A stretch of DNA of 64,000 bases from Minisyncoccia bacterium (GCA_049303835.1 JBAQNN010000003.1:192769-256768); one strand, 5' to 3'. Counted from the stretch's first letter, positions 17,857-49,311 are shown. Notes: generated by a model not told the origin, from the sequence alone. Translations and numbers: made by a program.

Positions 17857-17857
17857 T

Positions 17858-18721: not shown

Positions 18722-18729
18722 TAGTATAA

Positions 18730-20958: not shown

Positions 20959-21963
20959 ATGAATAATATAAAAAACAATCTTCGTGATCTAATTGGAGAC
21001 ACTCCAATGTTAGAAATAAAAACCAATAGGCCTGATTGGAGAATATTTTTAAAGTTAGAATATTTTAACCCTGGTGGAAGTTTTAAAGACCGCACAGGCA
21101 GAGCCTTGATAGAAGCGGCAGAGAAATCCGGAAAATTAAAAAAGGGAATGACTATCTATGAATCTTCTTCGGGCAATACTGCCAAGGCTTTAGCCATGCT
21201 TTCCGCAGAGAGAGGATATAAATTTGTGGCAATCGTTGACAAACACGCCCCGGCAGACAAACTCAACTCTATTTTAGCTTATGGGGGCAAACTTCATTTT
21301 TGCGCTGAAAACGAAGGCGATAAAAGTGGTCACTTAGTAGATGTTCGTCGTAATAAAGCTAAAGAATTAGCCGAAAAAAATAACGGCATCAATCTAGATC
21401 AATACGACAACCCGGAAAATCCTCTTGGCTTTTATAAAACTTTAGGCAAAGAAATTTTTAACCAAGTACCTGATATTGATTATCTTATAGGGACCATCGG
21501 CACAGGTAGTTCCCTCTCCGGAACAGGTAAATATCTCAAGGAAAATGGTGATACAAAAATAATCGCCTTAGAGCCAAAAGGCTCTAGTCATTTCTCCCCT
21601 TTGGGTCACGGATATTTTATATCCGGTCCCGGATACCCCGCCGGAGCTGTTCTGCCTAAAAATATTGACCCATTAATTTTTGATTTACACGACTATGTAT
21701 CTGATACTGAAACTTTTAATACCATGCGATTTTTTGCCCACCATAAAGGGTTACTTTTTGGAGATTCAAGCGGTATGGCGCTCTACTATGCTATGAAATT
21801 TATTAGAAATAGCCCGCAAAACTCCGAAACAAAAACAATGGTTCTCTTGATTGGAGATAGTGGAGAAAGTTATTTAACTCATGCTTTTTCAGATACTTGG
21901 ATGATAGAAAATGAACTTTTAGACGATAAAGTCGCAGAGAAATTATCTGATTTTTATATTTAA
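20959..21963 (+). CDS. PLP-dependent cysteine synthase-family enzyme (CysK/CysM/CBS fold type II)
   Basis: PLP-lysine motif GGSFKDR, SSGNTAKALA, glycine loop GTIGTGSSLSGT. Confidence 0.8.
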   Translation: MNNIKNNLRDLIGDTPMLEIKTNRPDWRIFLKLEYFNPGGSFKDRTGRALIEAAEKSGKLKKGMTIYESSSGNTAKALAMLSAERGYKFVAIVDKHAPADKLNSILAYGGKLHFCAENEGDKSGHLVDVRRNKAKELAEKNNGINLDQYDNPENPLGFYKTLGKEIFNQVPDIDYLIGTIGTGSSLSGTGKYLKENGDTKIIALEPKGSSHFSPLGHGYFISGPGYPAGAVLPKNIDPLIFDLHDYVSDTETFNTMRFFAHHKGLLFGDSSGMALYYAMKFIRNSPQNSETKTMVLLIGDSGESYLTHAFSDTWMIENELLDDKVAEKLSDFYI

Positions 21964-22985
21964 TTTATTGTATTCCCTGTTTTAATAACATGATCTACTA
22001 AGGTATAGGTATACCCCATTTCGTTGTCATACCAACCCATAACTTTTATCAAGTTTCCACCAACTACGCGAGTCATCTTAAGATCGGCAATAGATGCATA
22101 TTTACTTCCTAAAATGTCGCTAGAAACAAGCTCTTCTTCCGTAACGCTAAAAATATTTTCCCATCTTTTTTCTTGCGCCGCTTTTTTGAGAATTTCATTT
22201 ACTTCTTCTGCTGTGGTGTTTTTCTTGGAAAGAAAAGTCACATCTACCATTGACCCGGCGGGCACAGGGACACGCATTGATATCCCATCAAAAAGTCCTT
22301 CTAACTTTGTAAAAGCTTTTGTAACAGCCATCGCTGCTCCAGTAGAGCTAGGTACGATATTTTGCGCAGCGGCACGACCTTCTCTTAAATCTTTTTTACT
22401 AGGCCCATCCACTAAGGCCTGAGAAGCGGTGTATCCATGCACGGTATTTAAAATTGCTTTTTCTATACCTAAAGCTTCATCCAAAATAGCGATAAGTGGT
22501 GAAGCTGCATTTGTGGTACAAGATGCATTTGAAGTAATATCACAAGTGCCAAATTTTTCTTCATTTACACCAAGTAAAATAGTCTCACCCATCACACTAC
22601 CGTCTCCCTCCTTGGCGGGGGCAGAAATTACCACTTTTTTTGCCCCTGCACCCAAGTGCATTTTTGATTTTTCATATGAAGTGAAAAGTCCGGTGGATTC
22701 CACTACTACATCCACCTCCAAATCTTTCCAGGGAAGCAGACTCGGATCTTTTTCTGCCAAAACTTTTACCTTCTTGCCGTCAATTACCAGGCTATCCCCA
22801 TCAACTTTTATATCATGTCCCCATCCTCTATAAACCGTATCGTATTTAAGTAAATAGGCCATATTGGCAATGTCTCCCAAATCATTCATCGCCACAACTT
22901 CAATCTCCGGACGTTCCCATGCAAGTTTCAAAAAAGCTCTACCGATCCTGCCAAAACCATTAATGCCAACTTTAATTTTTTTCAT
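21960..22985 (-). CDS. gap: Glyceraldehyde-3-phosphate dehydrogenase; start reassigned to MKKIKVGINGFGRIGR
   Basis: NAD-binding GINGFGRIGR, catalytic ASCTTN; track ORF carries a 29-aa spurious extension. Confidence 0.9.
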   Translation of the reverse strand: MKKIKVGINGFGRIGRAFLKLAWERPEIEVVAMNDLGDIANMAYLLKYDTVYRGWGHDIKVDGDSLVIDGKKVKVLAEKDPSLLPWKDLEVDVVVESTGLFTSYEKSKMHLGAGAKKVVISAPAKEGDGSVMGETILLGVNEEKFGTCDITSNASCTTNAASPLIAILDEALGIEKAILNTVHGYTASQALVDGPSKKDLREGRAAAQNIVPSSTGAAMAVTKAFTKLEGLFDGISMRVPVPAGSMVDVTFLSKKNTTAEEVNEILKKAAQEKRWENIFSVTEEELVSSDILGSKYASIADLKMTRVVGGNLIKVMGWYDNEMGYTYTLVDHVIKTGNTIN

Positions 22986-23046
22986 AATTATTTGCCTAAA
23001 TTTTAATACATACAGTATATCAAAAAAATAACTAAAATGTGCTATT

Positions 23047-26000
23047 ATGGTGGAAATGGAAAAAGAAACCAAAGAAAATGAGCCAAAATTCGTACATCTC
23101 CATACTCATTCACACTATTCTCTTTTGGACGGGCTTTCCAAGCTTGAAGATTTAATTGCTTTAGCTAAAAAATTTAAAATGCCGGCGATAGCTATCACTG
23201 ACCACGGCAACATGTATGGAGCTATTGAATTTTATAAACTGGCGAAAAAAGCCGGGATTAAGCCCATTATTGGAGTAGAGGCTTATATGACTGCCGGGTC
23301 AAGATTAGACAGAACAGCGGAAGAAGGAGGAACCAAGCGTTATTATCATTTGACATTGCTCGCAAAAAATCTGGAAGGATATAAAAATTTAATTAAACTG
23401 GTAAGCCTGGCAAACCTAGAAGGATATTATTATAAACCGAGAATGGATAAAGAAATCTTGAGAAAATATTCCTCCGGCATCATTGCTCTTTCCGGATGTC
23501 TGGGTGGAGAATTGTCTCAAAGCATTGTTCGAGATGACATAAAAAAAGCGGAAGAAATAATTTACGAATATCAAGATATTTTTGGAAAAGAAAATTATTT
23601 TATAGAAATTCAATCTCACCCATCTGTTGAAAATGACAAAAAAGTCCGTGAAGCGCTCGTGGAACTTGCCCAAAAACACAACATCACCGTGGTTGCGACC
23701 CAAGACTCACATTATCCATGCACGGAAGATCATGAAGCACATCACACCTTACTCCAAATAAACACCCAGGGAGATGGCAAAGAAAATGGCAAATTTGAAT
23801 TTTCCGAAGATGATTTTTCTTTTATGAGTACGGAAATGGCACTTCAGGTTTTTAAAGATATACCGGAGGCTGTGACTAATACGGCAAAAGTGGCGGAGAT
23901 GTGTAACCTGGATTTGGAATTGGGAAAATGGGTTTTCCCTGATTTTAAAATTGAACCAGGTAAAACTTATGACGAGAAATTACGTGAATTGGCTTACGCT
24001 GGGTTTGAACGCCTAGGACTGAGAGAAACTCCTGAAATTAAAGAACGAGTAGAGTATGAATTAAAAATTATTTTTGATAAGGGATATTCGCCGTATTTCT
24101 TGGTAGTCGGAGATCTTTTAAAATTTGCCAAGGAAAACGGAATTCTGACGACCATCAGAGGATCGGTCGCCGGATCTATGGTCACTTACCTTCTCGGTAT
24201 TACCAATGTGGATCCAATCGCCTACAAACTCCCCTTTGAAAGATTCCTAAACCCTTATCGTCCCTCGGCGCCGGATATAGATATGGACTATGCCGACAAT
24301 CGCCGAGATGAAATGATTGAATATGCAAAGAAAAAATATGGTGAAGAAAAAGTGGCCCAAATAGGAACATTTGGCACGATGATGGCCCGCGGGGCCGTAC
24401 GAGATGTCGCCAGATCGCTCGGGTACGAATACAGTATCGGAGACAGACTTTCAAAAATGATTCCCCTTGGCTCTCAAGGGATGCCTATGACCATAGACCA
24501 CGCCATGGAGATAGTCCCAGAATTAAAAGAGGCATATAAAAAAGAAAAGGATACAAAAAAAATCCTGGACCTGGCCAAAAAACTGGAAGGCTGTGTTCGC
24601 CACATCTCGGTACACGCCGCCGGAGTCGTCATCTCTCCAAAGCCACTTTCAGAATATACTCCGACTCAATTTGACCCCAAAGGAGGCAAGGTAATAACCC
24701 AGTACGACATGTACAGCATTGAAGAAGCAGGACTTTTAAAATTTGATTTCTTGGGAATACGAAACCTGGCAATCTTGGCGGACGCAATTAATCTGGTAAA
24801 AAGATTTTACAATGTAAACATAGACATTGAACGTATCCCCCTTGATGATAAAAAAACTTTTGAACTTTTAGCAAAAGGCCAGACGGAAGGATTATTCCAA
24901 CTAAACGGTTCCGGCATGACAAGATATTTAAAAGAATTAAAACCGACTTCTATTCACGACATCAATGCCATGGTCGCCCTATATCGTCCCGGACCCATGG
25001 AATCAATCCCTGAATATATCAAACGAAAACACAACCCGAGCCTGGTAAAATATCTGGATCCTAGAATGAAAAAATTCTTAGGACAATCATATGGACTGAT
25101 CGTTTATCAGGACGACTTACTCTTCTCTGCCATAGAACTGGCCGGGTACAATTGGGAAGAAGCGGATAAATTCCGCAAGGCCGTAGGTAAAAAAATTCCC
25201 GCGGAAATGGCGGCTCAGAGAGAGAAATTTACCAAAGGCATCATAGACAACGGACAGACACCAGAATTTGCCGAGAAGCTCTGGAGACTCTTTGAACCAT
25301 TTCAGGCTTATGGTTTCAACAAGGCGCACGCGGCTTCCTACGGCAAGGTCGCCTATCAGACCGCTTATATGAAAGCACACTATCCAGTAGAATACATGGC
25401 GGCTATTTTGACTGCTGAATCAGGCGACGTAGAAAAAATTGCAGAAATTATTGAAGAGTGCAAACACATGAAAATTCCGGTCTTGCCTCCCCACATTAAC
25501 GAAAGCTTTGGTGGGTTTACTTGCCTATCTTCCAAAACAGGACTAGATGTAAACAAAGAAAATGAGAGCGAGAAGATCAGATTCGGGTTTTATACCATCA
25601 AAAACTTGGGTACTGATATTTCAGATAATATTATCGCTGAAAGAAAATTAAACGGAAAATTTAAATCTGTCAGCGACTTTTTAGATAGAATCAAACATAA
25701 AAACTTAAACAAGAAATCTATGGATGCCTTGATCAAATCCGGATGCATGGACGACTGGGGAGACCGCGGAGTATTACTCTCAAATTTGGAAGCAATGCTT
25801 GCTTACAACCACGAAAGTGTCAAACAAAACGGAAACCAGGTTTCTCTTTTTGGCGGGATAACAAAAGTGCAAGCTCCAGAATTCAAAATGCAAAGTGGAA
25901 AAGAAGCAGAACAGGCAGAAAAACTACTTTGGGAAAAAGAACTCTTGGGGCTTTACATCTCCGGTCATCCACTTGACCGTCTGCGCGACAAACTGGAGAA

Positions 26001-30642: not shown

Positions 30643-31272
30643 TCATAAATTTTTTTCCTTAATAATTTCCTCCTCTTCCCTGGTAAAGACTTTTTTAAGC
30701 CAAATTTGCGCCATGACGATAATTAAAAGAATTAAAACGACAAAACCCACTCCGGCATATACGTTCTTTAAAATACGAGAAAGGTAAGCAAAACCGAGAC
30801 CGGACAGAAAACCTATAGAGGTGAGTGTCGTAAGCCAGATTAAGATAGCCGCTAGGTCGTTGCATATGAATCTCTTAAAAGCGATGCCTGTTTTACTGAC
30901 ATAAAAAATCACAACCACTCTGGTACCAACGAGAAATTTTGCAAAGATAAAGGCAAATAAATGATTTCCCCTACTTAGACGCTGTATCGCTTCAAAGATG
31001 ACGGTAATTGTTTTGGCGGTGTAACGGTGGCCGACTATTCTTCCTGCCATTTTTGTTTTACCAAGCAAAAACCACAAAGTATCCGAGGATAAAGTACCAA
31101 AAAAACTGACAATAAAAAATGGAGTCAGGGGAAAAGCGTTCTGAGCGGCAAGAAAAGACAGAAAAATAATTGCTGACTCTCCACCGAAAGCTGCACCAAA
31201 AAATATTATTACGTATTTCAATAATGGATAACTGAGGATAAAAGCAGAAACCCATTCCACAAAAGAAGTCAT
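30643..31272 (-). CDS. DedA/TVP38-family membrane protein
   Basis: ~200 aa, 5-6 TM, FGAAFGGESAII and LWFLLGK motifs. Confidence 0.65.
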   Translation of the reverse strand: MTSFVEWVSAFILSYPLLKYVIIFFGAAFGGESAIIFLSFLAAQNAFPLTPFFIVSFFGTLSSDTLWFLLGKTKMAGRIVGHRYTAKTITVIFEAIQRLSRGNHLFAFIFAKFLVGTRVVVIFYVSKTGIAFKRFICNDLAAILIWLTTLTSIGFLSGLGFAYLSRILKNVYAGVGFVVLILLIIVMAQIWLKKVFTREEEEIIKEKNL

Positions 31273-31311: not shown

Positions 31312-33264
31312 TTATTTCTTCTTGCCCTTATGTGTAGATTTTATATCTCGGGTCAAAGCTTTTAGAATAACATCTAGCTCCATGGTCGCTACTCCTACTA
31401 CTGTATCCGCTCCCCCATAATAAATATAAAGCAGGCCATCTTTTACCACCATACCACACGGGAAAACGACATTATTTACTATGCCATTTTTTTCGTAAGG
31501 TTCTTCCGGTTCAAATATCGGATCAGTGGTACGTGAGAGCACAAGAGCTGGATCTTTAAGATCAAGCAAGGCTGCCCCTATACGATACGTATGATGGTTT
31601 GTAGAAATACCGTGGTAAAGAAGTAACCAGCCGTGCTTGGTTTTTATTGGTGGCGCAGAAATACCGACCTTCAGACTGTCCCATGCATTTATTCTTGGTC
31701 CGATAATCCTAATACATTTTTTTACTGTTTCAGTTTTAAAACTAAGAGATTTTAGATAGTCCCCGCATATTTCACTACCGACTCTGTGCAGAATAAAATA
31801 TTTTCCATTAATTTTCTCCGACAAAATACAAGTATCTTTATCATCAAAACCTGCCGGGGTAATCAGAGCCGGTTTTGTCCACTTCCAATTTTTTTTGAGA
31901 AAATCTTTTTCCGTAATAGAAGACACCGCTACCCTCGGGGGGCCAACACCATCAAAGGCCGTATAACACATATATATCTTCCCTCCTATCTTCGTCAATC
32001 GCGGATCCTCACAACCAGAATTTCCGCCAGCCACTTTTTTTAATTCAAAACTTTCTCTAGGAACATACACTGGCTCTGTATCTCTCTCGTCTATAGAAAA
32101 TCCATCCTTGGTATTCGCATAACCAACAGTGGACGTATTGTCCATGGATAAAGCACGGTATAAGAGATGTGTTATGTTGTTTATTTTTAACGCAGCCGGA
32201 TTGAACACAGCTTGAGCTTCCCATGGGTGTGTCTTGTCTGGTGTGATAATCGGGTTTTCGGGAAAACGTTTGAAATGCCATCGCATGCTTGTTTCCGGAC
32301 GCATAGTCCCTATCAAATCATCAATATTTACATGTGCCATGCAGACAGTCATATCCGTCGCTCCATAATATATATAGAGAGTATCTTTTTCTAAAATTGC
32401 ACCCGAGGGGAAGATCACATCAGGAACATGGCCTAAAAGTTCATACGGCTCCCGTGGGACTAAAACAGGACCTCTGGTATGCCCAACAACGCTGAGTGGA
32501 TTATCTAAATCAAGAAGTGCCGCTTCAATCCCGAAGATACGTGGCAAATTGTCTCCTCCAGGAAAATAATTTTGGATGTGAGAATACAAAATGAGCCACC
32601 CATGTGGGGTTTTGATAGGGGTAGTCCCGACCTCGGTATGATCGGATTCCGTTCTTTTTAATGAGATCGTGTGTTCGTCCAAACTTGCATACCATTTTTC
32701 CCAAAAACGGGGATTCCACAATTCCTCTATTTTATCCACTTGAGCAATAGCGATTTTTGATGGGGGCATATCTGTATTTACCGTCAGTATTACTGTGATT
32801 TTTCCGTTGATGCGTTTAGGAAAAAGAGTCATTGCTTTGGCATTGAAAGGTGTGACCAAGTGTCGTTCGTCAATTTTTTTTAAATCTTTTGAGACAGCCA
32901 CCGCCACCTTGATTCCCTCTGCGCCAAATGGATACCTGGAAAGTGCGGTATAAAAAGTATAATAATTTCCTTCAAAATAAGTTATGCGCGGATCTTCACA
33001 GCCATATTTTTCCCATTCTTCTTCTGGGGTAATAAAAGGAGCACAGTCTTCAAAATGCACTCTATCTTTACCCTTACCGATTCCAATAATTGATATTCTC
33101 TCAGGAACTCGCAATTTGTCTTCCGCTCCTATCGCCCGATACACGCCATAATAAGTTTTCCCTTTTTTTACGACACTCATATTAAACGCAGCAAAAGCCT
33201 CCCAGTAATGGTCTTTAAACGGAATTAAAATTGGATTATGGTGGGATCTTTTTACTACGTACAT
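31312..33264 (-). CDS. Tandem double GH130-family (beta-mannoside phosphorylase-like) protein
   Basis: Two repeats of the GH130 core (NPIL/IT-P...WEA.A.FN, YYG.YRA, GCEDPRIT/LT, YYG(G)A); no signal peptide. Confidence 0.7.
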   Translation of the reverse strand: MYVVKRSHHNPILIPFKDHYWEAFAAFNMSVVKKGKTYYGVYRAIGAEDKLRVPERISIIGIGKGKDRVHFEDCAPFITPEEEWEKYGCEDPRITYFEGNYYTFYTALSRYPFGAEGIKVAVAVSKDLKKIDERHLVTPFNAKAMTLFPKRINGKITVILTVNTDMPPSKIAIAQVDKIEELWNPRFWEKWYASLDEHTISLKRTESDHTEVGTTPIKTPHGWLILYSHIQNYFPGGDNLPRIFGIEAALLDLDNPLSVVGHTRGPVLVPREPYELLGHVPDVIFPSGAILEKDTLYIYYGATDMTVCMAHVNIDDLIGTMRPETSMRWHFKRFPENPIITPDKTHPWEAQAVFNPAALKINNITHLLYRALSMDNTSTVGYANTKDGFSIDERDTEPVYVPRESFELKKVAGGNSGCEDPRLTKIGGKIYMCYTAFDGVGPPRVAVSSITEKDFLKKNWKWTKPALITPAGFDDKDTCILSEKINGKYFILHRVGSEICGDYLKSLSFKTETVKKCIRIIGPRINAWDSLKVGISAPPIKTKHGWLLLYHGISTNHHTYRIGAALLDLKDPALVLSRTTDPIFEPEEPYEKNGIVNNVVFPCGMVVKDGLLYIYYGGADTVVGVATMELDVILKALTRDIKSTHKGKKK

Positions 33265-33271
33265 AAAATAA

Positions 33272-34474
33272 TCAGGCTCTTCCTTTTTTGCTTTTTACTT
33301 TCGTTGCGTTGGAATGTATCAATTCCTCTAAAAATTTATCCAAATTGGCAGTCGCCACGCAGGAAACCTTATCAGCTCCGCCATAATATACAAACAATTC
33401 ATTATTCTTAACTATCGCCCCGCAAGAATATACCACGCCAGCCTTATACCCTTCATTTTCATACCATTCGTCCGGTTCCAAAATCGGTTGATTAGAATTA
33501 TATAAAATTTTCGTAGGGTCTTTTGTATCCAAAATCATCGCCCATAGTTTGTATCTGTGCATTTCACCCTTATCCATTTTATGATATAACACCAGCCATC
33601 CGTATTTCGTCTTGATAGGAGTAGGACCCACACCCCTTATGAGTCTGTCGCGAGCCCCCCACAAAGGACTCCCTTGGTGAACACTATGTATAAAATTACT
33701 TCCATTGAGTTCCTTTAAATCTTTCAAATAATCTATCATCACGTGTGGAGAAATACTGTGTAGAATTGCGTATTTATTATTTATTTTTTCCGGAAAAAGA
33801 ACCCAATTTTTGTGGATTTGGCCTGGGGGAGAAATCAAAACAGGTTTTTCCCAGTTCCAACGTCTTTGGATAAAATCATCCAGACTGATAGAAGTGAGGG
33901 CTATCCTTACAGATCCCCAACCATCAAAAGCTGTGTAAATCAAATACACCCTATCATCAAAAAGAGTCAGTCTGGGATCTTCACAGCCCCCTCCCCAACC
34001 GCCTCCGGAACAATAAGATATCTGCGGCACTATTTTTGATACAGGCTCTACCACTTTGTGATAATAAGCGAGTTCTTTTGAATTTTTTTCTATATTAAAA
34101 CCATTAAAACTTTTTGCGTAGCCTAATACTGAAATATCGTTTTCCCCAATGGCTCTGTAAATTATGTGAACTTTCCCATCGTGATAAAGAGCGGCAGGGT
34201 TAAAACTAGCTTTGGACTCCCAATACAAATTGCTTTCTGGTTCAATAATTGGATTTTTGTTTGATCTTTTTAAATCAAGCGAAGTCTTCTTTCGGGCTAA
34301 GGTCTTTGGCAGAATTTTCTTTATAATCTTTTTTTTCTTAACGAGAACTTTCTTGGTAGTTTTTTTAACCACCCTTTTAACTGCTTTTTTCGCGCTGCGC
34401 AATGTAGGCTTTTTTGTTAAAACTTTTTTTATTTTCTTCCCGCCGTGGCGGACAATCTTTTTAAGCGCGACCAT
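33272..34474 (-). CDS. GH130-family protein with ~75-aa Lys-rich N-terminal extension
   Basis: N-terminus KKIKKVLTKKPTLRSAKKAVKRVVKKTTKKVLVKKKKIIKK then GH130 core (NPIIEP...FNPAAL, GGCEDPRLT, VYYGGAD). Confidence 0.7.
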   Translation of the reverse strand: MVALKKIVRHGGKKIKKVLTKKPTLRSAKKAVKRVVKKTTKKVLVKKKKIIKKILPKTLARKKTSLDLKRSNKNPIIEPESNLYWESKASFNPAALYHDGKVHIIYRAIGENDISVLGYAKSFNGFNIEKNSKELAYYHKVVEPVSKIVPQISYCSGGGWGGGCEDPRLTLFDDRVYLIYTAFDGWGSVRIALTSISLDDFIQRRWNWEKPVLISPPGQIHKNWVLFPEKINNKYAILHSISPHVMIDYLKDLKELNGSNFIHSVHQGSPLWGARDRLIRGVGPTPIKTKYGWLVLYHKMDKGEMHRYKLWAMILDTKDPTKILYNSNQPILEPDEWYENEGYKAGVVYSCGAIVKNNELFVYYGGADKVSCVATANLDKFLEELIHSNATKVKSKKGRA

Positions 34475-34802
34475 ATTTATCTTTTATTCTTACAATATCT
34501 TCCTCATCAAAATTTCCAAAAGCTATCTCCAGGACTTGCACATCATCATCTTGAGCCTCAAGCTGATGGAGCTCTAACTTCTCTATTATAAACTCTTCTC
34601 CTGGATTTGCACTTTTTTTAGTTTCTCCAATAGTGATGAGGGGATGACCGGAAATAACTCGCCAAAATTCTGTTCGGTCGTTGTGATATTGCAAACTTAA
34701 AGATGAATTAGAATTAACGGAAAGAATTTTTACTGTACTTATCTCATTGTGGGTAAATTGATCAAACTGCCCCCAGGGTTTTTTTACCGTGAACGTCTTC
34801 AT
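34461..34802 (-). CDS. Cupin, type II phosphomannose-isomerase-like
   Basis: KPWGQF...LSLQYH..R.E.W cupin motifs as in ManC C-terminal PMI domain. Confidence 0.55.
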   Translation of the reverse strand: MKTFTVKKPWGQFDQFTHNEISTVKILSVNSNSSLSLQYHNDRTEFWRVISGHPLITIGETKKSANPGEEFIIEKLELHQLEAQDDDVQVLEIAFGNFDEEDIVRIKDKYGRA

Positions 34803-34832
34803 ATTATATATATTATATAACTAAATAGATTT

Positions 34833-35600
34833 TTAGCTAATCCATTTTCTTATAATTTCTCCGGTTTCTTCCGGACCTTTGACTGCAATGGTTTCCATCC
34901 CTGCCTCTTGCACTGAATAATCGTTTCCGCCAGGGAAAAGAGCGTCTCCGACGAATAATAAGTCCGATTTTTCAAGCCCAATTTTATTAAGCAATCGTGT
35001 AAGTCCTACCGCTTTGTTAAATCCCTTAGACAAAATATCAATACTGGAACTACCGTTGATCAAAATATCAACTTCCGGTAATTTAGGAGCGAGGACTGCT
35101 TTGATTTTTTCTCTTTTTTTTCTATCCGGATCCCAAAGTCTTTTTATTTCAATCGGGGCTTGTTGTCCATTTGGAGTAAAAGTAATTTGAGTATCTCTGT
35201 CTTCTATGATATGCCCTATGGGGTTCGGCGGTATCCCATAGTCAGGATCAGCGATGATGCCTTCTAATAATTTTATCGCCCGTTCTTTAACCTCATCATC
35301 TAGTGGTTCTTTATCTGTCAATTCCCAATCTTTTTTTATTTCATCATACTCATATTTTTGACTACCGCTGGTAGGTAACAATGTAAGGTTTCGGATAAAC
35401 GAAGCCATAGTATCATCACTACGGAATGGAGGGAAAAATTGGGTTTGAAATTGTTTAAAACTTCCACCACTGATTATTACTACCATTCTTTTTTTGACAA
35501 GTTCTTTTACCAGAGAAGCCATCTCTTTTGTTATGGGTGATTTGCTGACCGTAAGTGTTCCATCAAGATCAAAAGCTATAATTTTATTAGGAGGCAACAT
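34833..35600 (-). CDS. Eukaryote-type phosphomannomutase (HAD-IIB PMM family)
   Basis: FDLDGTLT, ISGGSFKQF, LFVGDALFPGGNDYS match PMM1/2 signature motifs. Confidence 0.75.
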   Translation of the reverse strand: MLPPNKIIAFDLDGTLTVSKSPITKEMASLVKELVKKRMVVIISGGSFKQFQTQFFPPFRSDDTMASFIRNLTLLPTSGSQKYEYDEIKKDWELTDKEPLDDEVKERAIKLLEGIIADPDYGIPPNPIGHIIEDRDTQITFTPNGQQAPIEIKRLWDPDRKKREKIKAVLAPKLPEVDILINGSSSIDILSKGFNKAVGLTRLLNKIGLEKSDLLFVGDALFPGGNDYSVQEAGMETIAVKGPEETGEIIRKWIS

Positions 35601-35601
35601 T

Positions 35602-36081
35602 TTATTTTTTATGTTTTTTTGTTTTTTCTTTTGCTTTTTTGACCAACTCAGATGAACTTTGGACTTTACCGCCCCAACCGACGTCGTTGACTATGACACA
35701 TCCCACTTCATTGCAAACCGCTACTTCGGGGATGTTGCCGGAATGTCTGTCTCCTCCTTTGGCAAAAATATGAGGACGAAGAGCTCGGATATCTTCAGTA
35801 ACACTAATATCTTTTGTATTTTTCTTATGACTACTTAGAACAACTCTATCAACAAAATGAAAGGCCTCAATAATTTCTTTACGTTCGTGTTCCGCCATAA
35901 AAACAAATCCTTTTTTTAATCTTAACCAATGGTCATTGTTGAGCAACACTACAAGCTCATCACCCAACTTTTTTGCTTCTTGCAACAACCTCACATGCCC
36001 GATATGTATCGGATCAAATCCCCCACTGACCATCACCACTTTCTTTTTTTTAGATGAAGGTTTTTTGCTCATAAAACTCAA
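35602..36081 (-). CDS. HIGH-motif cytidylyl/adenylyltransferase-like nucleotidyltransferase (TagD / RfaE domain II family)
   Basis: GGFDPIHIGHVRLL; ~140-aa core with Lys-rich termini. Confidence 0.6.
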   Translation of the reverse strand: MSFMSKKPSSKKKKVVMVSGGFDPIHIGHVRLLQEAKKLGDELVVLLNNDHWLRLKKGFVFMAEHERKEIIEAFHFVDRVVLSSHKKNTKDISVTEDIRALRPHIFAKGGDRHSGNIPEVAVCNEVGCVIVNDVGWGGKVQSSSELVKKAKEKTKKHKK

Positions 36082-36093: not shown

Positions 36094-36768
36094 TTATTTT
36101 AATAGAAATCTCAAGGTGGAAACTACGCGAATCTTTTTATATTCAGGAGAACCCGGATCTTTATCGGTAATATCAAATACCCCTTGATTTCCACGAGAGA
36201 CACTGCCCAAACGAGAACCGGACTCTTGCGCAAACTGTAAAGCTGAAGTTCTGGCGTTTTTAATGGCTTCGGCAAGCATCTCTGGTTTGATGCTATTGAT
36301 ATCTGAGAATTGAAAATCTATTGAGTTCTGGCTCAGGGTTACTCCCTTTTTAACCAAAGCTAAAGTTTCTTTGGATGTAGCTCGTACTAAGTCAACTTTT
36401 TTAGTGTAAACAGATAATTGAATATAAGCATTATACCTAAATAAAGCATCTTTATAGGTATCTTGGTAAATATTCACAGGAGCAACATTTATTTCTGATG
36501 CCTCAAATCCTTTTTCTGTTAAAAACGACTTTATGGTCAAAGTATTTCTCTCAATATCAGCGTAAAGAGAGTCTATATTGTTTGACTTTACATCAAAATT
36601 GATGGACCAGATGGCCACATCCGCCTTCACTATTTTTTCCGACAAACCTTTGACCTCTACATAGGATCCTTGTTTTGAAAAATTCTGAGCAGAAAGAAAA
36701 AACACAAAACTAAAAACTAGTAATACCGCACTGATAATCCACACACTATAATTTTTTATATTTTCCAT
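36094..36768 (-). CDS. SIMPL-domain (DUF541) secreted/anchored protein
   Basis: N-terminal TM, SIMPL-like AIKNARTSALQFAQESGSRLG segment. Confidence 0.6.
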   Translation of the reverse strand: MENIKNYSVWIISAVLLVFSFVFFLSAQNFSKQGSYVEVKGLSEKIVKADVAIWSINFDVKSNNIDSLYADIERNTLTIKSFLTEKGFEASEINVAPVNIYQDTYKDALFRYNAYIQLSVYTKKVDLVRATSKETLALVKKGVTLSQNSIDFQFSDINSIKPEMLAEAIKNARTSALQFAQESGSRLGSVSRGNQGVFDITDKDPGSPEYKKIRVVSTLRFLLK

Positions 36769-36792: not shown

Positions 36793-37974
36793 CTAAACAA
36801 AATCTACCCTATGTTTCCTAAAAAGCATGACAAACACTCCTATCGCTACTAGAGCCATAAAAGCTGCAAAAATAAAGGCATAAATAGGATTAAACATCCA
36901 AAGCCCACCCGCAATCAATGAGGCAAGCAGGTAAATCAACCCCACAACCAGATTATACGCCCCCATGGCCGTAGCTCTCCTCTCTTTCTCCAGGTCAGCG
37001 ATAAATGCTCTGCCTTGCGCTGCATCTATGCTGTAGAAAATTCCGTACAAAATAAACAAAATTATAATTTCCCATTTTTCTTTGGCAAAAATAAACCCAA
37101 GGGACATAACAAGATAGGTCAGATATCCGAGAACAACGATATATTTTCGGCCAATTAAATCACCGAGCTTGCCGACCGGGACAGAGACAACGACAAAAGA
37201 AATATTGAAAAGAGCATAAAGTAAAACTACGTCTTTTATGACAAAACCAATGTCATAAGCTCTCAATAATAAAAATCCAAAACTAAAATAAGCGACGGAA
37301 AAGATACCCGATGGAATCAGAAATTTTTTGAATGATGGATTTAAAGTTTTCCAAGCTTCAAAAAGATTTTCTCTTTCATGCGGAATCCCCGGACGATCTT
37401 TCATCATAGAGAGCACGGCCACAGATATGGCCGCCGTGATTACCGCCATAATAAAAATTATATTAAAAGTATTTTTCTCTTGTCCCAGGAAAAGAAATAA
37501 AACATACACAATAAGCGGACCCAAGATGGCTCCCGCTTTATCCATAGCCTTGTGCACTGCGAAAGCATATCCCCTGGTGGGGCCTTCCGCTACTTCCGAA
37601 AGCCACGCATCTCTGGGTGGACCACGAAAACTTTTTCCCATACGTTCAATAATTCTAAAAGAAGCGAGCGCCACGACCGAAGAAGGAACCAAGAGCATCC
37701 CTTTTGCTAAGGTAGAAAAACCATACCCCAAAATAGTATATTTTTTTCTTTTTCCTGATCTGTCTGACAACCATCCAGAAAAATAATCCAAGGAAGAAGC
37801 GGAAAAATCTGCAAAGCCTTCCACTAGACCCAAAAGAGTGGCTGGAGCTCCCACAATCACCGTGAAAAACATAGAAAAAACAGAAAAAACAGCCTCCGAA
37901 CTGACATCCGTCAGGAAACTAACAATTCCTAATTTAAAAACATCAGGATGAACATTGAATGGCCTCTTTTCCAT
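36793..37974 (-). CDS. MFS transporter
   Basis: 12 predicted TM helices, loop 2-3 motif GWLSDRSGKRK. Confidence 0.75.
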   Translation of the reverse strand: MEKRPFNVHPDVFKLGIVSFLTDVSSEAVFSVFSMFFTVIVGAPATLLGLVEGFADFSASSLDYFSGWLSDRSGKRKKYTILGYGFSTLAKGMLLVPSSVVALASFRIIERMGKSFRGPPRDAWLSEVAEGPTRGYAFAVHKAMDKAGAILGPLIVYVLFLFLGQEKNTFNIIFIMAVITAAISVAVLSMMKDRPGIPHERENLFEAWKTLNPSFKKFLIPSGIFSVAYFSFGFLLLRAYDIGFVIKDVVLLYALFNISFVVVSVPVGKLGDLIGRKYIVVLGYLTYLVMSLGFIFAKEKWEIIILFILYGIFYSIDAAQGRAFIADLEKERRATAMGAYNLVVGLIYLLASLIAGGLWMFNPIYAFIFAAFMALVAIGVFVMLFRKHRVDFV

Positions 37975-39604: not shown

Positions 39605-40156
39605 ATGGAATTTAAACTTGAAAAACCCTCTTTGGAAACCGAAAATCCCAATGAAAATAGGGATAAAATAATGGAAAAAGCTCAAGAAGAACGTCTAAAA
39701 CTAAAATTTGATGTCTTTTTAAAAACAGTAAAATTAGCCATACACTTCCTAGAAGTCACCACCCCTATCGGAAATTTTAAAATGGGGGCAGAAGCAATGC
39801 TAGGTAAAAGATTTTTGACAGGTGAAGAATTAAGTAAAAAGGATAGAATTATGTATGGTCTGATAGTTTTACATAGCTCAATCTATGCCACCTTGCTGGG
39901 ATATGGACTCATCAAAGGAGACCCGAACGCAATCATGTTGTCTGCTCCAGTGTATGCAATTACAGTCGGGCTCACCATCGCGGGGAAAAGACAACAAGTA
40001 AAAGAAGACATACCTGAATCTGTAAAAAAATACGGAGATTCATTGAATGAACAACTCATAGCATCTAAAAAAGCAATAGAAGAATACGGCCAGGAAAATG
40101 TAAAAAAATTAATAGAAAAAATAAAACAAAACAAAAAACCAGATGACAACGAGTAA
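39605..40156 (+). CDS. Hypothetical membrane-associated protein
   Basis: Track ORF, two hydrophobic helices, no recognised domain. Confidence 0.4.
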   Translation: MEFKLEKPSLETENPNENRDKIMEKAQEERLKLKFDVFLKTVKLAIHFLEVTTPIGNFKMGAEAMLGKRFLTGEELSKKDRIMYGLIVLHSSIYATLLGYGLIKGDPNAIMLSAPVYAITVGLTIAGKRQQVKEDIPESVKKYGDSLNEQLIASKKAIEEYGQENVKKLIEKIKQNKKPDDNE

Positions 40157-40597: not shown

Positions 40598-41803
40598 ATG
40601 AAAAAATTAACCCTAATCAAAAAATCTCTGCCCGTATTTGCCCTTTTGGCTTTGGCGGTCGGTTCGTTCGGCATAACGCCACAAATAGTATACGCTGTTG
40701 CCATACCACCGTTAGTTGACCTCGGGACAGCCGGTGACTATACAATCTTAACAAAAACAGGAATTTCAACCACTGGCCCTACTAGTGTTGTTGGAGACAT
40801 GGGAGTAAGTCCCTCTGAAGCAACTTCTATAACAGGATTTGCATTAAGTCTTACAGAAGGAAGTCCCTTTTCCACCTCTGCACTTGTAGCTGGAAAAATA
40901 TATGCTCCGGGTTATGCAGCCCCTACCCCTACTAATCTAACTACAGCCATAAGCGACATGGAAACTGCTTACACGACAGCGAACGGCCTAGCTCCAGGAG
41001 TTACTGAACTCGGTGCTGGAAATATTGGCGGACTGACGATTGTTCCGGGAGTCTATAAATGGACTACCGGTGTCATAATACCAGCCGACGTTACTCTTTC
41101 TGGAAACGCAGACGATGTTTGGGTATTTCAAATAGCTCAAAATCTTGACATAAGTTCTGCTACACAGGTGCTTCTCAGTGGTGGTGCCCAAGCAAAAAAT
41201 ATTTTCTGGATAGTCGCCGGCCAAACAACTATTGGTACTACAGCTGTCTTTATTGGAAACATCTTGGACAAAACAGCAATCGTGTTAAATACTGGAGCAA
41301 CATTAAATGGCCGAGCATTGGCACAGACTGCAGTCACTTTGGATTCTAATTACGTTTCCAATGTGGGCAATAAAACAATTGGAACAATCACTGGAACAGT
41401 CGGCGGATTTGGAGTTTTGAAAGTGGACTCAATTGAAACGATAGACAATACAGCCATCGCTGATGGCACATTCGCAAGTGGCTGGGAATATATCTTCAAC
41501 ATAACAATTCCGTCCAATGAAACAAATCTTGCAATGAAATTCGCAGACTGGGTGCAAACCGGTGGCCCTGGAATAATTGCAACAGCTAATAACATCAGAA
41601 TCTCTTCTCTCCAAGCAGACAACGGAGGAACGACCGTCTTGTTGACTGGGGCAAATCTTTATTCATCCCCTACTCTTCACATGATTACCGACTTAAACCC
41701 TGCTACAGATGGAATTCAGATAAAGGTTAAAGTAGAAGTAGCTGTTCCAACAGGCTCTCTAAATGGTGCCTATACTACGAGCTACGGAGTAAAGACAAAT
41801 TAA
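40598..41803 (+). CDS. Secreted protein with DUF3494 (ice-binding-protein-like beta-helix) domain plus shared C-terminal beta domain
   Basis: Signal peptide; LGTAGDYTILTKTGISTTGPTSVVGDMGVSPSEATSITGF is the DUF3494 N-terminal signature; C-terminal 120 aa ~60% identical to 47041 gene. Confidence 0.7.
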   Translation: MKKLTLIKKSLPVFALLALAVGSFGITPQIVYAVAIPPLVDLGTAGDYTILTKTGISTTGPTSVVGDMGVSPSEATSITGFALSLTEGSPFSTSALVAGKIYAPGYAAPTPTNLTTAISDMETAYTTANGLAPGVTELGAGNIGGLTIVPGVYKWTTGVIIPADVTLSGNADDVWVFQIAQNLDISSATQVLLSGGAQAKNIFWIVAGQTTIGTTAVFIGNILDKTAIVLNTGATLNGRALAQTAVTLDSNYVSNVGNKTIGTITGTVGGFGVLKVDSIETIDNTAIADGTFASGWEYIFNITIPSNETNLAMKFADWVQTGGPGIIATANNIRISSLQADNGGTTVLLTGANLYSSPTLHMITDLNPATDGIQIKVKVEVAVPTGSLNGAYTTSYGVKTN

Positions 41804-43937: not shown

Positions 43938-45764
43938 ATGAGAAAATATCTTTTATATAGTTTGTTGGTTTTGACTTTCGGTTTTATGGTAGCAGGGACA
44001 ACGCAAGCTCAAGCTGTTCCGACATTATCCGCCCAAGACTTTGGGGTCATGGATTTTAGCGGGGTCATGGGATATTCTGCCGGTTTTCACCTAACTAACG
44101 GAGACTTAACGGGAGCTAGTATGGTAGTAAAATTGTACTCTGGAGACGCTTTACTACAAACTAATACTGCCTTGCCAGGTAAATTTACTGGTACTGATTT
44201 TTCTGGGCCGTTTGATGTCACAGGCACGTTTGACTATGTAGCTGATGGTTACTGGCAAAACGAAAGAGAAAGTGAATTCGGAGCAAACCTTGTTCCTACA
44301 AAAGTAGTCGCCACTGTTATATTAACAGATTCCACAATTCTGACAGCAGAAAACAATGTTTTAACCGGCGATCCATCTACTGTAATGCCAGCAGGATCTT
44401 TGGCTGCTGAAAATTTCAACGTAGTAGATTCTGATACAGGATTGGGAATACTTAAAGGTTTCACTTCCGGTTTTGCTTTAACTGGAGATACATGGAATCA
44501 CGCTACATCTGTAGTGGTTGAACTGTATGCAGGTTCAGAACTCCTTCAGACCGACACCGCGATTTTCCCTCAGTTTGGAACTATCGGTGGAACTCAAATT
44601 TCCGCACCGTTTGATGTGCTCGGAAATTTTGATTATGTTACCGACGGATACTGGACAAACGAGAGAGAGAGCGAGTACGGCAAGAACATAGCACCCACTA
44701 AAGTAAAAGCCACAGTAATACTTGAAAGTGGAAAAATACTTACAGCAGAAAACACCAATCTAACAGGAGTAATAACCACAATAATTCCACCTGGCATTCT
44801 TACAGCAGAAAATTTTAATGTAGTAGTAAATTCTAATACTGGCCCTACTACAGGAATCCTTACTGGTTATTCCACAGGGTTTGCGTTAACCGAGGCAACA
44901 TGGGCGGAAGTGGCTTCTGTCGTAGTAAAATTGTATGCAGGTACTAACCTATTGCAGACGGACACAGCAAATTTCCCTTTGTTCGGCACCATTGCCGGAA
45001 CTCAAATTTCCGCACCGTTTGATGTGTCTGGAACATTTAACTATGTAATAGATGGATATTGGACTAATACTCGAGAAAATGAGTACGGACAAACTGCCGC
45101 TCCTACAAAAGTTATAGCAATAGCTACTTTGATTAACGGCAAGATGATGACAGCTCAAAACACCCTACTTACTGGAGGAAATGCTGAGGAGGTAATGCCA
45201 GTTACTTTTGAAGTAAATTATATCGCGGGAGACAACGGAACTATTACTGGGTATACAAATCAAAATGTTCCTACTGGAGGCAACGCATCTTCTGTCACCG
45301 CGGTCGCTAACGATGGCTATCGTTTTAATGGCTGGAGCGACGGAGTAACCACTGAGGTCAGAACTGATACCAACGTCACCGCCGACCTTACCGTCACTGC
45401 AAACTTTGAAAGAAACCGATCTTCCAGTGGAGGAAGTAGAAGAGCTACTCCTGCTACCCCCGCTACTCCAGCAGTTCCCGGAGTAAGCCCAGCCATTCCT
45501 GCGACTCCCGCTACCCCTGGAGAAGTGCTCGGTGCTGAAAACTTTACTTTCACTCTTTTCTTGAAGATGGGGCCTCCCTACCTCAATAAACCGGAAGTAA
45601 TGGAACTTCAGAAATTCTTAAATACAGCCGGCTATGGCCCGCTCGTAGTTGATGGAAAATTTGGAGTGCTTACTAAAGCGGCTCTCGTTAAATTCCAAAT
45701 CGCAAATGGATTAGTAGGCGATGGCATAGTAGGACCTCTTACTAGAGCAGTCTTAAATAAATAA
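43938..45764 (+). CDS. Secreted cell-wall protein: three ~130-aa tandem repeats, Flg_new/InlB-B-like repeat, PATP linker, C-terminal peptidoglycan-binding (PG_binding_1) domain
   Basis: Signal peptide; triplicated FDV.G.FDYV.DGYW.NERESE...PTKV module; YRFNGWSDG; ATPATPATPAVPG; LQKFLNTAGYGPLVVDGKFG..T..A...FQ. Confidence 0.6.
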   Translation: MRKYLLYSLLVLTFGFMVAGTTQAQAVPTLSAQDFGVMDFSGVMGYSAGFHLTNGDLTGASMVVKLYSGDALLQTNTALPGKFTGTDFSGPFDVTGTFDYVADGYWQNERESEFGANLVPTKVVATVILTDSTILTAENNVLTGDPSTVMPAGSLAAENFNVVDSDTGLGILKGFTSGFALTGDTWNHATSVVVELYAGSELLQTDTAIFPQFGTIGGTQISAPFDVLGNFDYVTDGYWTNERESEYGKNIAPTKVKATVILESGKILTAENTNLTGVITTIIPPGILTAENFNVVVNSNTGPTTGILTGYSTGFALTEATWAEVASVVVKLYAGTNLLQTDTANFPLFGTIAGTQISAPFDVSGTFNYVIDGYWTNTRENEYGQTAAPTKVIAIATLINGKMMTAQNTLLTGGNAEEVMPVTFEVNYIAGDNGTITGYTNQNVPTGGNASSVTAVANDGYRFNGWSDGVTTEVRTDTNVTADLTVTANFERNRSSSGGSRRATPATPATPAVPGVSPAIPATPATPGEVLGAENFTFTLFLKMGPPYLNKPEVMELQKFLNTAGYGPLVVDGKFGVLTKAALVKFQIANGLVGDGIVGPLTRAVLNK

Positions 45765-45788
45765 TCTAAATAAAGATTTTTACTCACA

Positions 45789-45822
45789 AAGCCCTACCTT
45801 TACAGGTAGGGCTTTGTTTGTT
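45789..45822 (+). terminator. Intrinsic terminator
   Basis: aagccctacc-tttaca-ggtagggctt perfect 10-bp stem followed by tgtttgtt. Confidence 0.7.
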
Positions 45823-45833
45823 ATAATAGTCCA

Positions 45834-46844: not shown

Positions 46845-46961
46845 TTTTCGTATAAAAAATAAAAATCACTTGTTTTAAACTTGGGACCTCCAGGGGCTAT
46901 TTATCTCTTTTTATATTTTGTATTACACCACACATTCCCTGTCATCAAACCTCCCCTATTT

Positions 46962-47040
46962 CGGCAAATATATATCAGGATAAACTGGTCGATTATCTAT
47001 CTAATTATTAAAATAACTATTAAAAACTAACAAAAAAATT
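46962..47040 (+). promoter_or_regulatory. Conserved ~80-bp upstream leader, copy B
   Basis: cggcaaatatatatcaggataaactggtcgattat...aaaataactattaaaaac; ~88% identical to 40513-40597. Confidence 0.6.
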
Positions 47041-48270: not shown

Positions 48271-48287
48271 TAATATAGACAAAAATT

Positions 48288-48707
48288 ATGAAACAAAAAA
48301 TATTATTAAAATCCTTCCTAATGCTCACCTTGATGGTGGCCTTTGGGGCGCAAGTATATGCATCGGAAGTGACAGGAACCCTCTCTTCAAGTACCCAAAA
48401 TGAAGGAGGTGGATCCGGATCAGAAATTACTGGCACACTAGACAACGGAAATATAGCCGGTACTGTCGGTAGTGGTGGAAGTTCTGGCGGAAGCAGTAGC
48501 GGAAGTAGTCGTCGTACGGGAGGGCAAGTATTAGGAGCATCGGATGACAATACCGGAGAAGTACTCGGAGCAACATACACCCCGGGCTTTCCTACTACTG
48601 GTCTCGGAAACAAAGCTACTCCTGATTCCACAAACCTTATGGCCTTGATTCTAGTTGTCGCCACTCTGACGATGTACGCTTATCACAAGATGAAGATAAA
48701 TGCATAA
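48288..48707 (+). CDS. Small secreted Gly/Ser-rich protein with FPTTG motif, C-terminal TM helix and basic tail (candidate sortase substrate)
   Basis: MKQKILLKSFLMLTLMV signal peptide; GGSGS repeats; ...PGFPTTGLGNKATPDSTN-LMALILVVATLTMYAY-HKMKINA. Confidence 0.45.
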   Translation: MKQKILLKSFLMLTLMVAFGAQVYASEVTGTLSSSTQNEGGGSGSEITGTLDNGNIAGTVGSGGSSGGSSSGSSRRTGGQVLGASDDNTGEVLGATYTPGFPTTGLGNKATPDSTNLMALILVVATLTMYAYHKMKINA

Positions 48708-49278: not shown

Positions 49279-49280
49279 AA

Positions 49281-49311
49281 AAATAAACCTCCCAAGGAGG
49301 TTTATTTTTTT
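49281..49311. terminator. Bidirectional intrinsic terminator
   Basis: aaacctcc-caa-ggaggttt perfect 8-bp stem with A-run before and T-run after. Confidence 0.75.

Follow-up and report, generated by a model that had tools for sequence, protein, structure and literature searches.

Do three GH130 domains encoded side by side with enzymes of mannose phosphate metabolism all act as phosphorylases, and which mannosides would they handle? This question is raised by positions 31312-36081 of a 64,000-nucleotide (nt) stretch of DNA from Minisyncoccia bacterium (GCA_049303835.1, JBAQNN010000003.1:192769-256768), which is called the window in its full length. The host is a Nomurabacteria/Paceibacterota bacterium of the candidate phyla radiation (CPR, Patescibacteria). 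Five open reading frames (ORFs) are present in this region, all on the minus strand: a tandem GH130 fusion of 650 amino acids (aa; 31312-33264), a stand-alone GH130 protein of 400 aa (33272-34474), a small cupin of 113 aa resembling phosphomannose isomerases (PMI; 34461-34802), a HAD-IIB phosphohexomutase of the PMM/PgmH clade with 255 aa, putatively a phosphomannomutase (PMM; 34833-35600), and a HIGH-motif nucleotidyltransferase (NTase) of 159 aa (35602-36081). In the original prediction, these genes constituted a purely catabolic pathway, in which imported beta-mannosides would be split by three GH130 phosphorylases to mannose 1-phosphate (Man1P) and channelled through the mutase and the PMI to fructose 6-phosphate (Fru6P). 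Searches with Pfam and NCBIfam models confirmed the five family assignments. From the analyses described below it appears reasonably likely that the locus specifies a cytoplasmic, Man1P-centred module handling beta-1,2-linked mannosides, and just one of the three GH130 domains is predicted to be a phosphorylase.

The active-site residues defined for GH130 enzymes were used as criteria (Li et al. 2020, PMC7660257; Cuskin et al. 2015, PMC4599007; Ladeveze et al. 2025, PMC12814180). In the numbering of UhgbMP, D104 is the proton donor, and phosphate is bound by R168 and H231 (Li et al. 2020, PMC7660257); a third basic residue of the phosphate site, K212, was placed by alignment. The +1 subsite comprises R59, Y/E103, R/K150, and D304, with the pair of E and K marking beta-1,2 linkage (PMC7660257). 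An Arg at the position of R168 is found in every characterised GH130 phosphorylase (PMC12814180), and Tyr is accepted at the His position in some predicted ones (PMC7660257). Together with orthologues taken from 24 loci, the window domains were aligned to UhgbMP, Teth514_1788, and Teth514_1789. HMMER alignments served to reconstruct the reference sequences, and published residues were used to verify the numbering.

The Pfam model PF04041 (Glyco_hydro_130) matched the 650-aa protein in two stretches (8e-92) and the 400-aa protein with an E value of 1.8e-39. An AlphaFold2 model of the larger protein, computed from an alignment of homologues obtained by a protein-database search, consisted of two beta-propellers (pLDDT 87.7, pTM 0.84), so that the proposed tandem fusion of two GH130 domains is borne out. 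According to Li et al. 2020 (PMC7660257), more than 99% of GH130 phosphorylases, known or predicted, consist of a single module. The two domains are designated N (aa 1-322; 32299-33264, minus strand) and C (aa 323-650; 31315-32298, minus strand), and the GH130 domain of the 400-aa protein is designated S (aa 68-400; 33275-34273, minus strand). Foldseek superimposed one propeller of the model on Teth514_1788/1789 with target-normalised TM-scores of 0.86-0.89 (0.89 against 9FJ8), and these two proteins are the nearest solved structures to all three domains.

Common to the three domains is everything that concerns the sugar. The proton donor Asp is invariant across orthologues (D91 in N, D420 in C, D166 in S), the E/K pair is present in all of them (E90/K143, E419/K476, and E165/K222, respectively), and the complete set of beta-1,2 determinants, R, E-D, K, and D, is kept in each domain. 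The linkage predicted for all three domains is beta-1,2 rather than that of a generic beta-mannoside as originally proposed.

The domains differ in the phosphate site. Only the C-domain retains the phosphate-binding Arg, Lys, and His. Its residues R370 (R59), E419 (E103), D420 (D104), K476 (K150), R494 (R168), K532 (K212), H551 (H231), and D620 (D304) represent the full beta-1,2-mannoside phosphorylase signature (UhgbMP equivalents in brackets, here and below), and the resulting pattern, REDK-R-K-H-D, occurs in 21 out of 21 orthologues and is identical to that of Teth514_1788/1789. The best matches in the PDB were 7FIP (6e-61) and 9FJ8 (9e-60). Based on this complete published signature, the C-domain is predicted to be a beta-1,2-mannoside phosphorylase making or using alpha-Man1P.

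In the N-domain (best PDB match 9FJ8, 4e-35), the residues for sugar binding and proton donation are kept, R43 (R59), E90 (E103), D91 (D104), K143 (K150), and D304 (D304), and all three phosphate ligands are replaced, R168 by T161 (T or S in orthologues), K212 by H209, and H231 by S228. The signature REDK-[T/S]-H-S-D is found in all 21 orthologues. Two acidic residues are also conserved: Glu211 is invariant in both orthologue sets, and Glu247 is invariant in the set of 19 genomes and at least 90% conserved in the set of 34 sequences. H209 occupies the Lys/Arg column, and Glu211 follows two residues later on the same beta-strand (209-212 in the AlphaFold2 model) and should therefore face the pocket of H209. 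Glu227 and Glu268 of BT3780 are the two candidate catalytic bases of GH130 beta-1,2-mannosidases (PMC4599007). The chain numbering of the BT3780 structure 5A7V is the native numbering plus four, as fixed by two anchors, N74 and D363, and the alignment of the N-domain to 5A7V begins with residue 206 at chain position 267. By this coordinate arithmetic, Glu211 coincides with Glu268 and probably corresponds to this hydrolase base. The NCBIfam model for BT3780, NF058598, gave a score of 188 for the 650-aa protein at a cutoff of 550. With its altered phosphate pocket, the N-domain is most likely an exo-beta-1,2-mannosidase-like hydrolase.

The S domain (best PDB match 9FJ8, 3.7e-45) represents a third variant. 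The beta-1,2 sugar ligands and the proton donor are again in place, R107 (R59), E165 (E103), D166 (D104), K222 (K150), and D368 (D304), as is the phosphate-binding His, H298 (H231). The Arg and the Lys are lost, being replaced by S240 (R168; S, N, or G in orthologues) and I279 (K212; V, I, L, or M in the wider family), and the signature REDK-[S/N/G]-[hydrophobic]-H-D is found in 20 out of 20 orthologues. A Gly is located at the position of BT3780 Glu268. Preceding the domain is an N-terminal tail (aa 1-67; 34274-34474, minus strand) which is strikingly basic, with 42% K+R and 1% D+E. Among the 20 loci in which the S gene is complete, 18 encode tails of 39 to 83 aa containing 31-54% K+R and hardly any acidic residues, and one (L015:9839-10963) specifies a transmembrane-like helix instead. 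A single transmembrane-like helix with basic residues behind it was detected in five out of 150 representatives of the wider family (P0122, P0166, P0171, P0264, and P0268). Apparently, the S class devoid of the phosphate Arg always carries an N-terminal extension, which is polybasic in most Paceibacterota and a transmembrane-like helix in other lineages. This alternation suggests that S operates at the inner face of the cytoplasmic membrane; taken together with the altered phosphate pocket, we infer that S is a membrane-proximal, non-phosphorolytic paralog.

Taken together, none of the 41 S and N orthologues has an Arg at the position of R168, and neither class retains K212. The loss of phosphate-binding residues, named beforehand as an observation that would refute the original prediction, thus applies to two of the three GH130 domains. 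Each class has its own conserved substitutions within an otherwise invariant active site, which indicates that S and N are functional variants as opposed to copies in decay.

At least 25 species-representative genomes encode relatives of the tandem protein, all of them Patescibacteria and labelled mostly as Nomurabacteria, Paceibacterota, or Parcubacteria, with Lloydbacteria and Levyibacteriota also being represented. In a large protein database, at least 120 clusters of tandem proteins of 640-665 aa with 75-93% identity were found, most of them named 'hypothetical' or 'GH43/DUF377'. The same set of genes recurs in the 25 species-level genomes and in many metagenome contigs, and this is far beyond what could be obtained by chance. 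Close relatives are syntenic over the whole neighbourhood, including the genes for the ribosome hibernation factor (HPF), Fmt, Def, HisRS, and signal peptidase. As these housekeeping genes share the synteny, it is uninformative by itself, and rearranged loci should be more indicative.

Several such loci were identified. In L012, L014, L015, and L020, at 48-66% identity, the genes for S and the N-C fusion are accompanied by the HAD-IIB gene, the cupin gene, or both. On a 488-kb contig (P0342), the order is cupin, NTase, PMM-like HAD, GH130, and double GH130, located between CTP synthase/SpoU and helicase genes. The NTase gene directly adjoins GH130 genes in L033 and L034, where the other members vary, and L031 and L032 contain a double GH130 gene with a PMM-like HAD gene in unrelated flanks; a PMM-like HAD gene also adjoins GH130 genes in the unrelated flanks of L015 and L020. 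Finally, S, N, and C are fused to a single protein of 971 aa (P0121, L026:8001-10916), in the same order as the genes in the window. Immediately before this triple fusion, a ManC-type mannose-1-phosphate guanylyltransferase is encoded, with a GT2 glycosyltransferase just upstream. The core unit is S plus N-C. A phosphohexomutase, a PMI, and a sugar-1-phosphate nucleotidyltransferase recur alongside it, and a functional link between these genes is supported by their joint presence in rearranged loci.

Domain arrangements are diverse beyond this unit. An exhaustive search with the S domain yielded 3203 cluster representatives, 396 of them with E values of 1e-30 or lower. Among the best 150, which were inspected, 108 were multi-propeller proteins, 106 with two GH130 domains and two with three. 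Multi-propeller GH130 proteins are thus common in CPR bacteria (further loci are L016:8115-9989, L027, and L028), and some loci contain two double-GH130 genes side by side.

Of the three accessory enzymes, the cupin matches PF01050 (MannoseP_isomer) with an E value of 6e-17 and 62.3 bits (cutoff 23.6). In TIGR01479 (GMP_PMI, the bifunctional type II PMI and guanylyltransferase) it corresponds to the C-terminal end of the model, and its best PDB matches, 7ZVY and 7ZVM, are PMI-annotated small cupins from Thermococcus. The motifs KPWG (residue 8) and LQYH (residue 37, with Q-x-H at 37-39) as well as E45 and H79 are present. It is putatively a PMI of the type found as the C-terminal domain of type II enzymes.

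The HAD-IIB protein scored 72.5 bits with TIGR01484 (cutoff 41.8) and 35.2 bits with PF03332 (PMM; cutoff 22.4) over its full length. The sequence D11-L-D13-G-T fits the active-site motif DxDx[TV] proposed for inspection, and K196 and the PMM-type motif IV, GDx3PGGND (D219 and D227), are conserved as well. The designation as a eukaryote-type PMM was correct with respect to the family. The closest characterised relative, though, is bacterial, the alpha-phosphoglucomutase PgmH of Lactococcus lactis (4BND; 4e-33, 31% identity), and the similarity to eukaryotic PMMs is weaker, with E values around 1e-12 (range 1e-12 to 1e-7). Across genomes, the slot between the NTase and cupin genes is filled by three unrelated proteins. 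In two loci (L007:2037-3680 and L009:6272-7876), it contains a classic four-domain phosphoglucomutase (PGM)/PMM, which supports the role of a mutase at this position.

The NTase belongs to PF01467 (CTP_transf_like; 2.3e-13, 50.9 bits, cutoff 21), with HIGH at residues 26-29 and SSS at 142; PF00483 (NTP_transferase, the ManC/guanylyltransferase fold) did not match this protein. The best NCBIfam hit was TIGR02199 (rfaE_dom_II) with 84.7 bits over the full length, below the cutoff of 181.5, and the best PDB matches were 3ELB, 3GLV, and TagD (1COZ). The protein is highly conserved, with 70-93% identity over many clusters, and the N-termini of orthologues indicate that translation likely starts at an ATG three codons inside the TTG-initiated ORF ('MSKKPSS...'). 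In the original prediction this gene was a possible side branch. However, it adjoins GH130 genes in three differently arranged contexts and is the most persistent GH130 neighbour in this lineage, and ManC precedes the GH130 genes in another one. By analogy with ManC, located beside the triple fusion and in the Teth514_1788/1789 cluster, it is putatively a Man1P nucleotidyltransferase.

No signal peptide and no hydrophobic N-terminus was detected in the GH130, PMI, mutase, and NTase proteins, all of which were checked, and they are therefore expected in the cytoplasm. There, the C-domain, resembling GH130_6 enzymes and having the complete signature, would interconvert beta-1,2-mannooligosaccharide plus inorganic phosphate and alpha-Man1P plus a shortened chain. 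As judged from family and context, the HAD-IIB mutase would interconvert Man1P and mannose 6-phosphate (Man6P), and the cupin PMI Man6P and Fru6P, tying the pool to glycolysis. The NTase, taking the position of ManC in related clusters, could feed Man1P into a pool of nucleoside diphosphate (NDP)-mannose. N and S may accept the same beta-1,2-mannosyl substrate in the -1 and +1 subsites with the proton donor kept, and would not bind free phosphate in the canonical manner. The N-domain would be hydrolase-like, with Glu211 reaching into the former phosphate pocket, and its fusion to the phosphorylase would create a covalent heterodimer. S, held at the inner membrane face by its tail, or by a transmembrane helix in other organisms, may perform a non-phosphorolytic step on a membrane-proximal mannoside. 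The route from Man1P via Man6P to Fru6P proposed initially is reasonable; a set of three phosphorylases at its entrance is not supported. The direction of flux, salvage or turnover, is not fixed by sequence, and both fit; the former, catabolic reading resembles the proposal for Thermoanaerobacter and the latter Leishmania mannogen. The substrate leans towards an endogenous one, since no conserved importer was found among the loci compared and PMI, mutase, and NTase make up a complete set for NDP-mannose synthesis.

A number of observations weigh against this reading. Where these organisms would obtain beta-1,2-mannosides is not known, nor is any nucleotidyltransferase of the HIGH family known to use alpha-Man1P, and the subfamily nearest to the NTase acts on beta-heptose-1-phosphate. 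In the mutase, K20, Q146, and K153 are located at the positions of R21, R134, and R141 of PMM2, as in PgmH, which is reportedly specific for glucose phosphates (Neves et al. 2006), and in five close relatives the mutase slot is occupied by a Cof-like HAD protein of 251-252 aa which is not PMM-like (L001:5758-6516; L002, L019, L021, and L022). Regarding the N-domain, 5A7V was not retrieved in a PDB search with a 61-aa fragment around E211, so that the equivalence to Glu268 rests on the offsets, and no position was mapped to the second base, Glu227. More generally, signature-based phosphorylase calls can mislead on this fold: in family GT108, the active-site residues alone do not settle whether an enzyme is a phosphorylase or a transferase, and distal mutations toggle phosphorylase activity (PMC10913872).

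The most probable alternative, a tentative one which we regard as rather unlikely, is an endogenous reserve or turnover cycle like that of Leishmania mannogen. In this cycle, PMI, mutase, and NTase would convert Fru6P via Man6P and Man1P to NDP-mannose; S, N, or both would use NDP-mannose or Man1P to synthesise a beta-1,2-mannan located inside the cell or associated with the membrane, and the C-domain would remobilise it as Man1P without ATP. Consistent with this are the synthesis set co-moving with the GH130 genes, the ManC-type enzyme and the GT2 glycosyltransferase preceding the triple fusion, and the cytoplasmic location combined with the lack of a conserved importer. In addition, all characterised beta-1,2-specific GH130 phosphorylases show weak GDP-mannose transferase activity (PMC12814180), and in GT108 it is precisely the Arg missing from S and N that distinguishes dual enzymes from strict transferases, and its exchange to His abolishes phosphorylase activity (PMC10913872). 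On the other hand, the GT108 transferases keep a His at this position, which S and N do not, and two of the basic residues lost in S and N have also been proposed to hold the diphosphate of GDP-mannose (R202 of Uhgb_MS and, by spacing, R242; PMC12814180). Moreover, the sugar and nucleotide specificity of the NTase is only putative, and beta-1,2-mannan has not been reported in CPR bacteria. A more far-reaching version of this idea is speculative, and we consider it quite unlikely: CPR bacteria might maintain an endogenous, mannogen-like beta-1,2-mannan or a membrane-linked beta-mannoside pool run by the GH130 trio, namely a phosphorylase, a fused hydrolase-like propeller, and a membrane-tethered paralog whose remodelled pocket uses a nucleophile or donor other than phosphate, for example NDP-mannose from the adjacent NTase or a lipid phosphate.

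If S and N were catalytically dead, they could be sugar-binding propellers with a lectin-like or regulatory function, delivering substrate to the phosphorylase domain or localising it. Non-catalytic propellers do exist in this clade, as in many related CPR proteins, about 610 aa long, the N-terminal GH130-like domain has lost even the catalytic Asp; GH130 enzymes function as oligomers (PMC12814180), and the tail of S would suit a localising role. Unlike these degenerate domains, however, S and N invariably keep the proton donor, the adjacent Glu, and all ligands of the -1 and +1 subsites, and an invariant Glu has been acquired by N in what was the phosphate pocket. A purely binding function is accordingly regarded as improbable.

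The third alternative concerns the mutase. The HAD-IIB protein could be an alpha-PGM or a sugar phosphatase, its adjacency to GH130 genes reflecting general sugar-phosphate housekeeping, as might be suspected from PgmH being its best characterised homologue, from the three PgmH-like residues, and from the Cof-like substitutes in the five loci. Nevertheless, the gene recurs beside GH130 genes in unrelated flanks, is replaced in L007 and L009 by a PGM/PMM of the bifunctional type, and adjoins the PMI gene, and its product retains S186-x-D188 as in PMMs instead of the T-x-N of PgmH. This explanation is very doubtful. The mixed residues of the sugar site do not allow the specificity to be read from the sequence, and the putative mannose specificity derives from the genomic context.

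Three phosphorylases fed by an importer, as initially assumed, are highly unlikely: all domains match PF04041 with proton donor and -1 subsite kept, S retains His298, a Tyr, and the neighbouring Arg280, and the His-to-Tyr exchange is tolerated as mentioned, but the Arg common to the characterised phosphorylases is absent from every S and N orthologue, the Lys is gone in both classes, and the transporter is generic, with efflux-type matches below cutoffs, and is not kept in rearranged clusters.

The module described above, the Man1P-centred one, is part of a block of nine co-directional genes on the minus strand, extending from 37974 to 30232 with a spacing of -14 to +39 nt. Within the five-gene core of the two GH130, cupin, HAD-IIB, and nucleotidyltransferase genes, the spacing is -14 to +30 nt, the cupin gene overlapping the next gene by 14 nt. 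A scan for promoters and terminators revealed no intergenic terminator-like site in the block, and since its counts were no greater than those from shuffled sequence, it says nothing on the limits of the operon. Upstream of the core, a generic transporter of the major facilitator superfamily (MFS_1; 36793-37974, minus strand) and a SIMPL/DUF541 protein (36094-36768, minus strand) are encoded. Both were considered as cluster members, the former as the mannoside importer suggested originally, and both were rejected; their position is conserved only among close relatives, in which the flanking housekeeping genes are shared too, and neither is found on the P0342 contig or in L033, although SIMPL recurs in L034. 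The best NCBIfam matches of the transporter were efflux families, far below the cutoffs.

Downstream, a VTT/DedA-like membrane protein (30643-31272, minus strand; PF09335, 27.3 bits, below the gathering score) is followed by HPF, the last of the nine genes, also on the minus strand and ending the block at 30232. The VTT/DedA-like gene starts 39 nt behind the tandem GH130 gene, a position kept in L001, L021, and L022. Proteins of the DedA family are implicated in polyprenyl-phosphate recycling.

The genes of glycolysis and the pentose phosphate pathway, thought to be neighbours able to use Fru6P, are located at 15.8-23.1 kb, 8-15 kb away and in other transcription units. They are separated from the cluster by the genes for DnaE, Pth, signal peptidase, HisRS, Def, Fmt, HPF, and the VTT protein, and were discounted as evidence for the pathway. 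Transketolase is encoded there by two overlapping ORFs, a thiamine pyrophosphate-binding N-terminal part and a Pyr/C-terminal part (16858-18784, minus strand), beside genes for Rpe, RpiB, and a divergently oriented sugar kinase of the PfkB family; the gene for GAPDH is found at 21960-23072.

Other features of the window are a 401-aa protein with an ice-binding-like domain (PF11999/DUF3494, 1.4e-72; 40598-41803, plus strand), a 183-aa protein with a PT-TG pre-toxin domain (PF14449, 2.4e-5; 39605-40156, plus strand) that may be a remnant of a polymorphic toxin, and a Lamin-tail/PKD protein (14403-15815). A cell-surface block at 43938-52007 contains large proteins with PG_binding_1, InlB B-repeat-like, or FG-GAP domains, a CAP-domain protein, and a sortase (48700-49278). 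Over the window (1-64000), GC skew is -0.1 to -0.3 where genes are on the minus strand and about zero or positive at 20-30 kb with its plus-strand genes. A comparable disparity of strand composition is known from some Microgenomates genomes (PMC7143001).

CPR bacteria have a minimal metabolism with few assignable carbohydrate pathways, and literature searches for GH130 in CPR/Patescibacteria gave nothing beyond one line on a Microgenomates genome with two GH130 genes. The conserved, operon-like module implies that beta-1,2-mannosides could be a significant metabolite in these organisms, whether obtained by salvage, stored as a reserve, or built into the envelope, and it suggests a route to NDP-mannose that does not involve ManC. 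The two GH130 classes with a rebuilt phosphate pocket, in which catalytic acid and sugar subsites are kept, are targets in the search for new GH130 chemistries and bear on the interconversion of phosphorylase, hydrolase, and transferase activities on this fold. Should the reading as an endogenous pool be true, at least one new catalytic activity of GH130 and a new pathway for carbon reserve or envelope in CPR would be expected.

The components were compared with known systems. With RfaE domain II/HldC, the best NCBIfam subfamily, the NTase shares HxGH and the C-terminal SSS, and the substrate there is likewise a manno-configured sugar-1-phosphate. In contrast to RfaE domain II, the NTase scores below the cutoff, its similarity to ethanolamine-phosphate and glycerol-3-phosphate cytidylyltransferases is comparable, and the pathway would supply alpha-Man1P, not the D-glycero-beta-D-manno-heptose-1-phosphate used by that adenylyltransferase. 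The mutase has DxDxT, a PMM-type cap, and the GDx3PGGND motif IV in common with PgmH (4BND) and with PMM1/PMM2 and aligns to them over the full length; it differs by its mixed sugar-site residues and by its identity, which is lower to the PMMs than the 31% to PgmH. The GT108 mannogen enzymes of Leishmania, with MTP1/2 as strict GDP-mannose transferases and MTP3/4/6/7 as phosphorylases (PMC10913872), are also five-bladed propellers (Foldseek matches 6Q50 and 6Q4X, E about 1e-9) and form a set of paralogs acting on beta-1,2-mannan which differ at the Arg of the phosphate pocket and are linked to NDP-mannose. Identity is only 13-15%, however, the window proteins belong to GH130, and the Arg is replaced by Ser, Asn, Gly, or Thr, not by His. 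Like the GH130_3 beta-1,2-mannosidases of Bacteroides (BT3780 and BACOVA_03624), the N-domain has lost the basic phosphate ligands, and it keeps the Asp, the adjacent Glu, and the beta-1,2 Lys of BT3780, with E211 probably aligning with Glu268. Unlike these, it is encoded without the signal peptide usual there, is nearer to GH130_6 in sequence, and forms a fusion with a phosphorylase domain.

The closest known system is the cluster Teth514_1785-1796 of Thermoanaerobacter sp. X-514, in which a Man1P guanylyltransferase (Teth514_1787) is encoded together with two GH130_6 enzymes, the 1,2-beta-oligomannan phosphorylase Teth514_1788 and the beta-1,2-mannobiose phosphorylase Teth514_1789 (PMC4264767). 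Both systems combine side-by-side GH130 paralogs with a sugar-1-phosphate nucleotidyltransferase, and the catalytic, phosphate-binding, and beta-1,2 signature of the C-domain is identical to that of Teth514. In the CPR host, two of the three paralogs have no phosphate site, two domains are fused in tandem and all three in relatives, and the NTase has the HIGH/cytidylyltransferase fold, not the ManC fold. A stand-alone cupin PMI and a HAD-type mutase are added, and an ABC importer, GH5, and GT4 are not part of the cluster. The locus thus differs from the Thermoanaerobacter cluster by a conserved GH130 trio with two altered paralogs, by tandem and triple fusions, and by its HAD mutase, stand-alone cupin PMI, and non-ManC nucleotidyltransferase.

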